Assembly: GCA_951406725.2 (NCBI GenBank)
Contig: OX597816.1
Location: 31,062,001 to 31,126,000, forward strand
From: Octopus vulgaris
Taxonomy: Eukaryota
DNA: 64,000 nt
Direction: 5' to 3'
The position numbers and the translations under genes are program-made. Shown in pieces: positions 5,460-59,528 of the stretch (positions within the stretch are counted from its first letter, which is position 1; each line of letters starts with the position of its first letter). The notes beneath the pieces are model-generated. The model searched no databases. It was not told the DNA's origin and worked only from the letters and a program-made list of their open reading frames with translations.

Positions 5460-6100
5460 GACAACAAAGGAATGACTGAGACCTCGATATTATGTAAATA
5501 GAGGAATTTAGCTATAAATATAATATGTGACAAATTAGTCAGTTATCATAATAAAACTCAGAGTTTCGGGGTTTCGGGTGTCGGGTTGAGACAAACAATA
5601 ATGTTATGAACATGACCTTTGAATAAATGGAAATTACTATGAAAATGGCCTTTATTAAGACAAACAAAGGACCTATGAGATTGACCGTTAAATATAGGGA
5701 AATTTCCCGAATAAAGAGAAAGTAATATCACTCGATGAGGGTAAAATACCGCTCATAGAATCCGGTTAAAAAGGCAATGAAGCTGAACAACCCACAACTA
5801 AGGACACCAAAAGGAAGAATTTAATGAACATGGGATTTGACTATACAAGTGTAAAGGAAGATACATTTCCACAGGACTTTGAACACTCTTTACTTTCAAA
5901 CTTTACAGTAATTACCGCGCCCTCATCTCTTTCCCGTCCTACTTCTTGAAAGGTCATCTAGCCCTTGTGAGAACATATATGAGCCGAAATTGCGATGACT
6001 ATCTGGTGCATAACTGAAGAAAGAAATCTTCGAAAGATCCGTCCTTATTTTCCGTGTATCGTCTATCTGGATGTTTTGTTGTCCCTTTTTGTATTTTATA
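5460..6100. mobile_element. Penelope-like terminal fragments between microsatellites, with hammerhead-like motifs
   Basis: 5478-5520 is homologous (reverse complement) to 49630-49670. A minus-strand half motif GAAACTCTGAGTTTTAT lies at ~5552-5568. A plus-strand ATAA-CTGAAGA-AAGAAATCTTC-GAAA-GATCC-GTC-CTTAT lies at 6010-6048. Confidence 0.5.
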
Positions 6101-7152
6101 TATATTTATATATATATATATATATATATATATATATATATATATATATATATATATATATATATATATATATATATATATATATATATATATGTATGTA
6201 TGTATGTATATATATATGTATATTTACAGATATACCTATAGGTATTACGGCGAAAAGCGAAAGAAGAGAAAGTGAAAAAAGAAGAAAAATATATTTCTAA
6301 TGGAATTTCAATGGGTTAAAAGAAAACTTTCTCTCACCCTCTGCATTCATCTACCCTTCTCTTCCTCGTTCTTGATTGTCCTGAAACCTCTCTTCTTGTC
6401 TTTGTTTTTATCCTATTTGATTTGCTTTTTCTCTATTCTCCTATCCCCACCCAAATATTTTTCCTCTTCTTCTCAACGAAGCAAAAATATAAATGAACAA
6501 GGAAACGCTCTGTATTTACCATGTTCATGTTGTTTTGAATTCCATAAAGAAACAAAAGCGCTAATAAAGAATTATCCAATATTTTGACTGCCTCCGTTTC
6601 TCAATATACAATATCTGTACACAACTTCAAACACTGTATACACACATACACCCCCATACCACATCTATATCAGCATGAGTGCGTGTATGTGTAGTTATAT
6701 TACTTGTGTTCATGCATGATAATATATATCATATTTTACGTAGCTTAGCGTTTATCCTTGTGAGGGAGTTTAGAAAACTCTTTCGTCCCGTAGGGAAACA
6801 ATATTTTCCCTATCAATTATTTAAAATATACTAAACATGCGGAGCATTTCCTTACGTACATCCAGCGACGAAAGTTTAGCTTCGCGGATGACGCCTGGTA
6901 GCCGTTTGTGGTGAAAGTGGTCTCAGCGCACACTGCTGGGTACGTACACAAAACAAGTTTTGAATGCAACTCTTTAAAGTCTCCTATCTAAACATCTAAT
7001 TTTAAACATAACCTAAATATATTTATATACATAAACACATATATATGCACACATGCACACATAAACCCGCACACACATAGCACACCCGCATATATATATA
7101 CACATATTCATGGAGATTATATATATATATATATATATATATATATACAGAT

Positions 7153-7380
7153 ATGTTTCTTTATTAGCCACACAGGGCTGCACACAGACAGAACAAATTA
7201 CAAGGTAGAGCTTTTCTTTTGGGGGTAAAAAAAGGGGGTTGGTTTTCGATCAAAAGGGATCGTTAAAAGAAAGAAAGAGGACAAAAAAGGGGAGGATTTA
7301 AAAAAAGGGGGGAGAGGAAAAAAAGGAAAGGGGAGAGGAAAAAAGTTGATCAATAGAGATCGTAATCACAGAAATGTCAA
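7153..7380 (-). mobile_element. Probable L1/Tx1-like LINE 3' UTR fragment
   Basis: The minus strand is pyrimidine-rich and ends GCCCTGTGTGGCTAATAAAGAAACA, similar to the 3' end of the Tx1-like element at ~31290-31325. It lies between (TA)n and (GATA)n. Confidence 0.4.
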
Positions 7381-7384
7381 TATA

Positions 7385-7470
7385 GACAGATAAATAGATA
7401 GATAGATAGATAGATAGATAGATAGATAGATAGATAGATAGATAGATAGATAGATAGATAGATAGATAGA
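7385..7470. repeat. (GATA)n microsatellite
   Basis: Directly visible. Confidence 0.95.
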
Positions 7471-56259: not shown

Positions 56260-56380
56260 TACTCTTTTACTCTTTTACTCTTTTACTTGCTTCAATCATT
56301 TGACTGCGGCCATGCTGGAGCACCGCCTTTAGTCGAGCAAATCGACCCCAGTACTTATTCTATCGGTCTCTTTTGCCGAA
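56260..56380 (-). mobile_element. SINE type A 3' fragment with (TACTCTTT)n tail
   Basis: TCATTTGACTGCGGCCATGCTGGAGCACCGCCTTTAGTCGAGCAAATCGACCCC. Confidence 0.85.
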
Positions 56381-57930
56381 ATGATTAATTATTTTGAATG
56401 ATCAGTATATATTGTGTTGTATGAAATTGTCACATAAGGAAAGAAGAACAAATGATTCATTTCTATATTGCTATTTGGTAATGATAATTAATTCAAATCA
56501 TTAAATTTGAAAATTTCACTATAACATGCACACACATTAACTTCAATATCCTGATTTAAATTCGATGCAAATTCGCGTGATTTTTTTTTTCTTTTACAAA
56601 CTGAAATATTTGCTTTCTTTATTTAATATCACACTGAGTCTTAGAATTTGGAGTTTCAATTATGAAGATAAGCTGGGATTATGCGGTACCAAATGCTTCG
56701 TTCATGATGGTTAGCCCCAGGTCTGCTCCAGCTTTTTAAGGCCGTGTTTTTTCTTAAATATATGTTTCAGGTTTAAAACATATTTCAAGGACGAAACATC
56801 TTGTAGAGAGATAGTTTCTGCGTGAAACAGATTTGAAACACAGAATTTCAAACGAATTTTATTATCGAAAGAACAAGCAAAATGTATATTTACAAACGAC
56901 AGATGTTTCTTTGAATAGATGCAAATCTGATAGAAGAACTGCAGTTAAAATTATATTTTTTAGATTTTTTTAATCGAAATATTTACTTTTAATCTTTTTT
57001 CATAATTAACTTTCTTGTCACTTCTTTCCATCTAACCATATTATCGTGATTTCAATCAGCACAAGTCGCACATGCTATCTAAGTAAAAATAACCTTCCAT
57101 GAAATATAATTAACCTCCTAAATTCGATTCATTGCCGGTTTTAAAATTAGGTGAAAGGTGTTGCGTAGTTGCTAGTCCAAGCAACATAAACTGGGCAAAT
57201 TCTAATTACTTGTCAGTAAACAATTTGAAGAAATGTAGAGTATTTGTTAAACTTTTCACTTTAAATGACATTTATTCAAAGGACAAATGTATATAAACTT
57301 TGCTATATCTAGTTAATATTTTTTCTGTCTCTTCATTATGTTACTTCTAAACATATATGTAAGCATACAAAAAATATCAATGTAATTCAAATAATTCGAC
57401 CGGGTGGCAAAATATCTACGCTGCAGAAGAGCAGCAAAATATATCAAAATGACACCGGGTAAACAAAAAAACCATTACCAAAATAAGTAACAACTGTAAA
57501 ACTATTTGAACTGTGCATTGAAGGAAACATGGAGGAGAATCTAAAATTTTAGACTGTGAGCGATCCACGGCATTAACAATTTATAGCACAGCAGAAAATA
57601 AAATTTACGTGAAAGCACCATAGATCAGACGATAAGAAATAAGGTGACCGACAAACGGAAATGAATAAAGTGCAGTTGTGCGGAAAGTTATGTTACAGCT
57701 AAAAAATTAAGGAGAGGGGAAAATATTACAAGAAGTAATTGTGAGTTGGGTGATCATGCCTTTCTCTCTCTCTCTATTTCACACTCTCTGAATTACTATG
57801 ACTATATGTTGGTCTTTTTCTGTATAGATATGTAACTATGTGCAGAAATATATATATATATATATATATATATATATATATATATATATATATATATATA
57901 TATATATATATATATATATATATATATATA

Positions 57931-58120
57931 GGTGAGAAAGTTGGTGTGAGAAAGCACGTGGTTGAATATATAGAAAATAGTAAAAAGTGAAAAAACTACA
58001 GAAGGCTTGTTTTAAAAGGTTAAAAAATATATATTTGAGCCATTATATCAGAAGAATATATATTCTTTAACCTTTTAAAACAAGCCTTCTGTAGTTTTTT
58101 CACTTTTTACTATTTTATAT
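57931..58120. repeat. (TA)n-flanked near-perfect inverted repeat
   Basis: AAAATAGTAAAAAGTGAAAAAACTACAGAAGGCTTGTTTTAAAAGGTTAAA pairs with its reverse complement at ~58066-58116. Confidence 0.9.
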
Positions 58121-59134
58121 ATATATATATATATATATATATATATATATATATATATATATACATATATAGCAGTGAGAATGAGTGTTCAGTTGGATTA
58201 ACATTATTAATTTGTGGGTCAACAACACTACCGATCATTATGAAAAAAATTATTTTCAATTATTTGCAAGCGTGGTACGCATCCATTTTGGTTGACAATA
58301 CGTGGAGTTATACCAGCCTATATGAGATATATAAATATCTAAATAGTAATGGTGATGGTGGGAAGTAACATATAAGAAACTCCTAATTGTTGCATCCCTT
58401 GAATTATACATTTGGCATGGGTTGGCTAACTATCTAACATCAGAACGTTGTAAATACACATACGTTCACACGCACATCAATACAAACTGCATTCACACAC
58501 ATACACTCACGCATATCGATATCAAACTATTCATATCCTGTAAATTCGCAATTTCTGCGACTGTCACTACATAAACCTAATTATTGTAACGTATGAAACG
58601 GAATCATTACTGAAAGTACTGGTGTATTTCAATATTGCAAAATTGTAAACCTTGCAAAAGATAAAACGGGAAAATTATGCTGGGGTAGAATTTCATTGAT
58701 TATAAAGTTTAAAGGGAACATGAAAAGCAAACCTTTCGGCATTACTTGAAAAGGGCATATAATTTGAATACAAACTATAGAGTCTCTTACGGCTGTTTGT
58801 AGAATAGGTAAATTCATGGATCATCATATTAAATAGGGATTCCATAGGCTGAGCATCAGAGAGGGAGTTATCAGAGAAATGTAAAAGAGAGAGAAAATCT
58901 GCAGTCGATGATATCAGTGTATTTCAGTTTGTCAAGAATGGGGGAAGAATGAGAGTAAAATAGGAATGCATTAGATAGATTCATGATCAAATGATAAATA
59001 GTTACAGGTAATTACCATTAGCGGTTTCAAATGAAAATTTTCAATGATAATCCCTAGCAAGGAATAATGGAAGGTTGTAATATATATATATATATATATA
59101 TATATATATATATATATATATATATATATATATA

Positions 59135-59528
59135 TTATATATATTATATTAAATTAGAGATAAAACCACTATTAGGCAAATCAAACAATGAATAACTTAA
59201 GCCAATACATAAAATTAAATCTTTCAATCACCTGAAGATTGACTGTAACCATAACTCGAATTATTACGAATTGGACAACCATGAAACGATCGTAGTGTTT
59301 TACTCATTATCTTTTATTAAACTTTTAATAATTTTGATATATATTTAAAATAATATAAATTAATTAATTTTATGTATTGGCTTAAGTTTTTCATTGTTTG
59401 ATTTGCCTAATAGTGGTTTTATCTCTAATTTAATATAATATAATATTTTACTATAAAATTGGATTCAATCCTAAATCTGATTTTTCCCTGTAAGTTTGGA
59501 TTTATTCCCTAATATTTTATTATTAATT
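59135..59528 (+). mobile_element. (TA)n-flanked inverted cassette enclosing a hammerhead
   Basis: Arms ~59135-59218 and ~59364-59444 are near-perfect. The loop holds CAC-CTGAAGA-TTGACTGT...ACAACCAT-GAAAC-GATC-GTA-GTG (59229-59297). Confidence 0.75.

Follow-up and report, generated by a model that had tools for sequence, protein, structure and literature searches.

Minimal hammerhead motifs beside (TA)n tracts in a 64-kb stretch of the Octopus vulgaris genome: probable 3' ends of Penelope-like elements and an abundant family with a U4C core

Results

Hammerhead Motifs in the Window

The stretch of DNA analyzed here, hereafter called the window, comprises 64,000 nucleotides of the Octopus vulgaris genome (GCA_951406725.2, contig OX597816.1, positions 31,062,001 to 31,126,000 of the forward strand) and harbors a scattered set of minimal type I hammerhead ribozyme motifs together with remnants of Penelope-like elements (PLEs). 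It has 33% G+C, 52 TA tracts, 16 TAA-type tracts and many old repeats. Site positions are given in window coordinates and refer to the first base of the hammerhead core. An original prediction had listed 14 sites, and hand annotation found both core boxes and recognizable helices I and II in eight of them. Intact boxes with usable helices are present at 7 of the 14 and also at 63460(-), a hammerhead absent from that list; the site at 49555 differs at U4 of the core, and at 6014 the boxes are out of register. Three sites are decayed (24108, 6014 and 9842), although 24108 and 6014 had been announced as full motifs, two are 3' halves only (5552(-) and 9250), and the site at 10273, which satisfied none of the hammerhead descriptors run on the window, found no support.

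The best-preserved minimal motif (46845..46904, minus strand; CUGAUGA core at 46894; the cut is predicted to follow 46855) has intact core boxes, a 4-bp helix I, a 7-bp helix II with an A.A closing pair and the sequence GAAA-CAGCUG-UA, and its helix III is predicted to form the strongest dimer of the set (-11.1 kcal/mol). These properties, together with the lack of an adjoining TA tract and the presence of the surrounding 2.6 kb in runs of four organism labels (0.31-0.73 of words), would suit a functional ribozyme kept by the host in a transcript, a reading that might extend to one or more other motifs. We consider it very improbable, since lone minimal hammerheads were uncleaved as monomers in tests described in the available part of PMC4209133, there is no second sense copy nearby and no host gene was identified in the window. 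There was no RNA run among the listed runs containing the stretch 45970-48560.

Two sites that had been called partial, at 54702 and about 49060, turned out to carry the known U3-A8 core. The first has core UUGACAA at 54703(+), a 3-bp helix I and a 5-bp helix II. The second has core UUGAAAA at 49098(-) and the sequence GAAA-GCGC-UA, and lies in a 158-nt cassette flanked by two (TA)n tracts (48950..49107, minus strand); its helix II has 4 bp, and its helix I has 2 bp followed by 5 bp past a bulge. The decayed type I motif at 6004..6095(+) retains an intact core, CUGAAGA at 6014, with irregular helices II and III, a helix I out of register and a (TA)n tract 93 nt downstream of the core, and the decayed minimal motif at 9832..9963(+) has core CUGUAAA at 9842, GAAA-CG-UU and a (TA)n tract 122 nt downstream.

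The helix III inserts seen are CGATCG, CAGCTG, CAATTG, CTC-A-GAG, GCGC, TA and CG. Of 12 sites, 8 have a helix III with complete self-complementarity, including one with a central A.A; at 16903 helix III is GAGC with two G.A pairs, and it is broken at 6014, 16614 and 63460. Among the palindromes of the original prediction, GAGCTC includes the UC cleavage step, and the GATC at 6014 is not in register. The sequences of helices I and II vary among families and the architecture is constant. A plain multiple alignment of 15 motifs lost the register of the structure. At least six hammerhead-bearing families are crowded into 64 kb, and all of them escape Rfam: scans of the whole window and of two stretches gave no hammerhead among the matches listed, and C/D-box matches at 16.9 kb reached 10-12 bits, far under threshold.

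Comparison with Shuffled Sequence and Association with TA Tracts

Three sites, 43686(-), 46894(-) and 59232(+), matched a strict type I descriptor that required the exact core, at least 2 bp in each of helices I and II, a palindromic helix III and UH; 30 shuffles gave a mean of 0.17 matches and a maximum of 2. Shuffles were block-wise dinucleotide shuffles of the 56.8 kb outside tandem repeats. A variant-aware descriptor, widened after the sites had been seen so as to allow the U3-A8 core and one core change, matched seven sites against a null mean of 0.33 and a maximum of 2 in 40 shuffles, the additional ones being 49098(-), 49555(+), 54703(+) and 48617(-), a match that spans a TA tract and was rejected as an artifact. 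A density above that of dinucleotide-shuffled sequence, as had been expected, was thus found with both descriptors. When candidates were selected on cores and helices II and III only, the first two helix I pairs were present in 7 of 11 candidates versus 14% in shuffled sequence (P = 2e-4), and the first three in 5 of 11 versus 6% (P = 3e-4); the count of 11 candidates was itself equaled in one of 60 shuffles.

Ten of 12 cores are followed by a TA or TAA tract no more than 320 nt downstream, in comparison with 21% of random positions (P = 6e-6 for a threshold chosen after inspection), and the median distance from core to downstream tract is 142 nt versus 1080 nt for random positions. Among the sites found by descriptor, which were picked regardless of TA, five of six have a downstream tract (P = 0.002). 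The exceptions to this rule are 46894 and 16614. Upstream tracts accompany only 5 of 12 cores, and the TA link is therefore one-sided, on the 3' side.

Chance matching in AT-rich, repeat-rich DNA would be a simple explanation of such motifs, because loose descriptors do match randomly (null mean 1.4-4.8), the sites at 10273, 48617 and probably 54601 are cases of this kind, and Rfam finds nothing. For the whole set it is refuted by the excess over shuffles, the tie to TA tracts, the pairing of a helix I that had not been selected for, the match of 63460 to a published hammerhead and the retention of core and GAAA-helix III at family level, so that its probability is negligible and it remains valid solely for individual weak sites. 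The motifs are genuine and exceed chance, although only about two thirds of the listed sites are well formed. Matches of loose descriptors at 30675, 40591, 21556, 26890, 62092 and similar positions were within the null range and were rejected.

Cassette Families and Fold-back Architecture

The long-helix-II family is represented at 43572..43720(-), amid two (TA)n tracts, with core CUGAAGA at 43686 and GAAA-CGAUCG-UA, and at 24075..24222(+), a copy 74% like 43589-43707 that ends at (TA)n and has a decayed core CUAAAGG at 24108 (two changes) and GAAA-CAAUUG-UA. The cassette at 59136..59528(+), which also lies amid two (TA)n tracts and has 61-nt inverted repeats, carries core CUGAAGA at 59232, GAAA-CGAUCG-UA and a CAC/GUG helix I. 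At 59232(+) and 43686(-) the helix II domain is 44-58 nt long and helix I has 3 bp and 2 bp, respectively; within the long-helix-II family, helix I is of the GCAG/CUGC type in one case and CAC/GUG in the other. To the same family belongs the fold-back cassette at 9151..9394, amid two (TA)n tracts, both arms of which consist of the 3' half only (GAAA-CGAUCG-UA); this relative of 43686 begins inside helix II.

A head-to-head inverted pair of 3' ends occupies 16386..17050, with cores at 16614(-) and 16903(+) and arms that agree at 81% over 240 nt. An additional tail of about 60 nt is found on the left arm, and the right arm terminates at (TA)n. Both cores are CUGAUGA and belong to one family, one of them keeping helix I and the other helix II. 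The fold-back cassette at 49474..49698(+), amid two (TA)n tracts, bears the core CCGAAGA at 49555, a U4C variant, with a 6-bp helix I and GAAA-CUCAGAG-UU, that is, a Hydra-type helix III CUC-A-GAG, and has its tail on the right arm only. A 3' half of this family with tail, 78% alike to 49617-49684, lies at 5460..5570(-), reads GAAA-CUCUGAG-UU and ends at (TAA)n. Hence 5' truncation, an inverted copy and a tail limited to one arm were observed in both head-to-head pairs, at 16.4-17.05 kb and 49.47-49.70 kb, and fold-back truncation at 9.15-9.39 kb. In agreement with this anatomy, PLE insertions are drawn as inverted 5'-truncated copies with the tail on one side in the available part of PMC8557442, and self-priming explains inverted PLE copies in PMC3846280.

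Transcripts of the inverted pairs are predicted to form long hairpins (-78 and -331 kcal/mol). Inversion of the arms does not account for dimer cleavage: within a single transcript the second arm is antisense and the long hairpin buries the core; therefore, an inverted arm cannot serve as dimer partner. Three further fold-backs, at 9439-9627, 40693-40870 and 57975-58115, are without a hammerhead core; two of them adjoin TA tracts, and the arms of the one at 9439, in which an eroded step resembling GAAA-CAATTG-TA is present, may represent a further 3' half.

Remnants of Penelope-like Elements

Two motifs follow remnants of GIY-YIG elements on the same strand, and one of the two is the hammerhead of Hydra-1_Obim, which bears out the proposal that several (TA)n-associated PLE families are present. 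The first remnant is a 5'-truncated broken PLE open reading frame (ORF) at 53580..54491(+), in which the frame 53877-54491 and broken upstream pieces make up a reverse transcriptase (RT) thumb, a C-x11-CxxC linker and a GIY-YIG domain with C, C, H and H residues. The frame 53877-54491 has 351 relatives at E<=0.001; among 14 long relatives scanned, RVT_1 was found in 9 and, at the C terminus, GIY-YIG in 11. Hammerhead 54703 begins 212 nt past the stop of this ORF, within the 3' untranslated region (UTR) of the broken PLE (54697..54822, plus strand), with GAAA-UA-UC and (TAA)n 140 nt downstream. The site at 54601, a CTGATGA 110 nt past the stop, lacks GAAA and was rejected as the hammerhead of this element in favor of 54703. 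By domain layout, the element at 53.6-54.8 kb would be Neptune-like. It had been proposed to mobilize the remaining cassettes, a role that does not suit a 5'-truncated, broken copy in which self-comparison of the window found no sequence in common with the other cassettes.

Fifty-nine metagenome loci are related to the 53.9-kb element, and 51 of them have at least 150 nt downstream. A minimal motif was found downstream of the related ORF in 7 of the 51 on the sense strand and in none (0/51) on the antisense strand; the cores are CUGANGA (four loci), UUGAAAA, UUGUUAA and UCGAAGA. The closest protein relatives (L001, L003, L004, L010, L012 and L016) showed no hammerhead in the 190-750 nt available past the ORF; in L002 the hammerhead is at +599, so contig ends may cut others off. 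Two core variants with good helices were seen in one contig each, UUGUUAA with U at position 6 (L017:1212-1256) and UCGAAGA with C at position 4 (L018:976-1021); the window site at 9842 also has U at position 6, like the former.

The second remnant, at 63390..64000(-), is the 3' part of a Hydra-1_Obim copy, with a decayed endonuclease end, a hammerhead core at 63460 and a 3' end at (TA)n. Compared by eye with the published Hydra-1_Obim consensus from Octopus bimaculoides, its endonuclease, hammerhead and 3' end agree, and it shows the CxxC and CxH endonuclease motifs and the (TA)n target that characterize the Hydra clade. The same 3' end recurs as a short copy in inverted orientation (63284..63330, plus strand; 93% over 42 nt), which starts at GAAA and faces the central (TA)n. 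In both PLE remnants the endonuclease comes last and the hammerhead after it, unlike the Naiad layout of an N-terminal endonuclease and no canonical hammerhead. A word-index protein search with the 53.9-kb ORF (longer forms) and the 63.5-64-kb fragment gave no match, an NCBIfam search gave nothing useful, and no PLE relatives were found in the viral contigs searched.

An Abundant Family with a U4C Core

From 4 of the 24 listed runs, Logan contigs were aligned to 49474-49698 at 80% likeness, with differences reported from 20%, and the aligned records numbered 1080, 2276, 349 and 25. The summed depth over the core reached 354,000 in run X1 and 551,000 in run X2, and single contigs had depths of 5-190; depth is not a copy number, but because the summed core depth far exceeds that of single contigs, the family of 49555 is very abundant. 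At position 49556, the C of the U4C change, no alternative base was listed, whereas differences were listed at 49546, 49582, 49591 and 49645. The share of C4 is at least about half (0.49 and 0.53) even if contigs with another base had been clipped. C4 is thus the family state in the public runs. A third run, X13, was uninformative in this respect, as its core was hardly covered (depth up to 65 versus 126,000 in the tail). Depth in X1 and X2 is 2-3 times greater over the tail than over the core region, in keeping with 5' truncation or with diverged subfamilies. Contigs from other copies of the family depart at 49686-49694 into (TA)n in all four runs (at least 37, 47, 8-9 and 3 contigs per run). 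The stretch 49474-49698 contains no true upstream sequence.

In the predicted fold of the C4 version, CCGAAG pairs with CUUCGG of the 3' strand of helix II with a probability of 0.52, leaving helices I and II at about 0.45, whereas in the U4 version the competing pairing vanishes and helices I and II reach 0.95-0.99. U4 contacts the A6-N7 phosphate, and U4C lowers activity considerably in vitro (PMC3088659). The 49555 family probably cleaves poorly, because of both the competing fold of C4 and the published effect of U4C, and these predictions suggest a weakened ribozyme that still spread widely. In the literature searched, which did not extend to the PLE hammerhead variants of Lunse et al. 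or to octopus repeat libraries, no U4C genomic family was found, only a remark on a viroid; among the consensi in the available part of PMC8557442, six short motifs of the window had no matches. Pattern scans for the 49555 family yielded 12 viral and 7 prokaryotic matches, which all lacked the rest of the motif and were rejected as chance.

The high depth of this family bears on the possibility that the short families (49555, 16903 and long-helix-II) are true non-autonomous mini-elements, retrozyme-like, with defined ends and their own transcription, and trans-mobilized by PLE enzymes. Cassettes of 150-600 nt amid TA tracts, with no ORF remnant alongside, would suit such elements; the available part of preprint 10.64898/2026.07.22.740005 derives animal retrozymes from PLE pseudo-long terminal repeats (pLTRs), which can act in cis for trans-mobilization (PMC3846280). 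Such an origin nevertheless appears unlikely. Head-to-tail units define non-LTR retrozymes, and no head-to-tail array of hammerhead units was found in the window among the matches listed by repeat self-comparison, contrary to the retrozyme-like mini-elements of the original prediction. Moreover, copies within one family begin variously before the core, inside helix II or at GAAA, and the greater depth of the tail in X1 and X2 is what 5' truncation would give.

Other Repeats in the Window

At 32558-37128 (zf-RVT at 34574-35203), (TAA)n tracts are interspersed with several 3' fragments of a non-LTR element of the restriction-like-endonuclease kind, and another lies at 54938-55221; these fragments resemble R4/Dong elements. 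Dong-R4 is listed as active in the available part of PMC13282606. At 1641-2602, inverted repeats of 281 nt (83%) surround a stretch in which positions 1946-2004 are TTAGGG-like repeats, and together they probably form a non-autonomous DNA element. A short interspersed family, abundant and interrupted by CA/TA tracts (8483-8864, 29077-29570, 44824-44996, 49723-50136, 52671-53118 and 56288-56380), is presumably a short interspersed nuclear element. At 48603-48890, the 3' end of an unrelated long interspersed nuclear element (an RT C-terminus-like frame and a short tandem tail, with no Pfam match) shares a TA tract with the 49098 cassette; we assume it to be CR1-like. An exact 103-nt tandem duplication (100%) at 51359-51564 is either a recent event or an assembly artifact, and two 270-nt direct copies (83%) of a repeat lie 3.3 kb apart at 12489-12757 and 15836-16105.

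Discussion

The motifs of the window are very probably minimal type I hammerheads in the 3' pLTRs of several endonuclease-bearing PLE families, at least one of the Hydra clade and at least one Neptune-like. An intact parent would make an RT with a C-terminal GIY-YIG nuclease and a zinc-finger linker, as shown for relatives and as the broken remnants in the window suggest. The nuclease would nick (TA)n or (TAA)n and the RT would copy the RNA from its 3' end, in keeping with the tie to TA observed on the 3' side. If the RT usually halted after 100-600 nt, insertions would retain the hammerhead region and the tail, and self-priming or a template switch, mechanisms known from the literature, could add the inverted arm and leave the tail on one arm, the anatomy observed here. 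By analogy with other published PLE hammerheads, cleavage of the parent RNA after UH would require that two sense copies join by means of the self-complementary helix III. The copies in the window would then mostly be dead fossils, decayed, single or buried in fold-back hairpins.

Several observations weigh against this explanation. Only 2 of 13 core-bearing sites (54703 and 63460) are linked to an ORF, and profile and Pfam searches upstream of 46894, 6014 and 24108 found no PLE protein; the profile was Neptune-like only and missed the Hydra remnant, and most of the ORF-less motifs have less than 300 nt before the next TA tract. The site at 46894 does not adjoin TA, the next tract being 927 nt away. 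Under the descriptor, 44 of the 51 related metagenome loci are without a motif, perhaps owing to decay, to long UTRs interrupted at contig ends or to real loss. Finally, in monomer folding against their own shuffles no motif was clearly better (best z -1.9), an expected outcome where helix III depends on a partner.

Truncated PLE ends with minimal hammerheads, their inverted pairs and a (TA)n bias have all been published already, and the set as a whole matters little. The U4C core as the state of one abundant family appears to be new here, and the rest is a known phenomenon. As a tentative proposal, which we regard as somewhat more doubtful than probable, the 49555 family could be a very abundant lineage of Hydra-type PLEs, or of mini-elements derived from them, in which the hammerhead became fixed for U4C and is half trapped in the competing CCGAAG/CUUCGG hairpin; the ribozyme with which the family spread would be nearly silent or switchable. 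If this were true, the family would be a natural knock-down for whether PLE hammerheads are needed in retrotransposition or ride along, since an abundant family with a crippled core is directly comparable with its U4 version. Naiads thrive without hammerheads, according to the available part of PMC8557442.

The closest known systems are the Hydra-clade PLEs. As far as it was available, PMC8557442 (Craig et al. 2021) describes Hydra elements, also in octopus, that carry hammerheads and target (TA)n, and lists Hydra-1_Obim with a (TA)n preference; the diverged copy of this element in the window has the same endonuclease end, hammerhead and 3' end at (TA)n. The helix III CUC-A-GAG of 49555 is that listed there for Penelope-3_HM, and helix II of 43686, 59232 and 24108 is closed by U...U, as in most Hydra hammerheads. 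In contrast, all 27 of the 27 rows listed have U at position 4, where 49555 has C, and the helix II domains listed for Hydra are shorter than those of the window (44-59 nt). For O. vulgaris itself, 31 recently active Penelope-like families are reported in PMC13282606, the available part of which never mentions ribozymes.

The available parts of PMC4209133 report thousands of minimal hammerheads per genome, in many families and with U3-A8 cores, both solo and as opposite-strand pairs 100-700 bp apart that were read as truncated PLEs, with low, dimer-dependent cleavage. The window motifs likewise have a short helix I, an extra base after A9, a palindromic 15.2-16.2 and loop, U3-A8 cores, many families per genome and solo or opposite-strand arrangements, and the AAC/GUU helix I and UA-UC step of 54703 are identical to those of the Nematostella (1) row. 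Octopus was not met in the parts covered, and U4C was not found in the supplement file searched.

Neptune-type endonuclease-bearing PLEs, whose microsatellite bias is ascribed to the linker in the part of PMC8557442 at hand, likewise combine an RT, a Cys linker and a GIY-YIG domain with CCHH-type residues, and the long relatives of the remnant measure 940-1460 amino acids. The remnant at 53.6 kb is likened to them by layout, not by a tree, and its linker, C-x11-CxxC, differs in its first spacing from the CX2-5CxxC of that clade. Animal non-LTR retrozymes, as described in the available parts of PMC7229834 and of preprint 10.64898/2026.07.22.740005, are likewise short and non-coding, with a type I hammerhead and a probable PLE origin, but their units, each with its own hammerhead, are arrayed head to tail, and their invertebrate motifs are canonical and cut as monomers, whereas the window holds dispersed remnants, single or inverted, whose motifs are minimal. 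The U4C change itself is shared with a viroid variant, cited in PMC3088659, in which cleavage in vitro is considerably lower and infectivity is allowed. In the viroid, however, U4C is a rare variant, whereas in the window it is the common state of an abundant genomic family.

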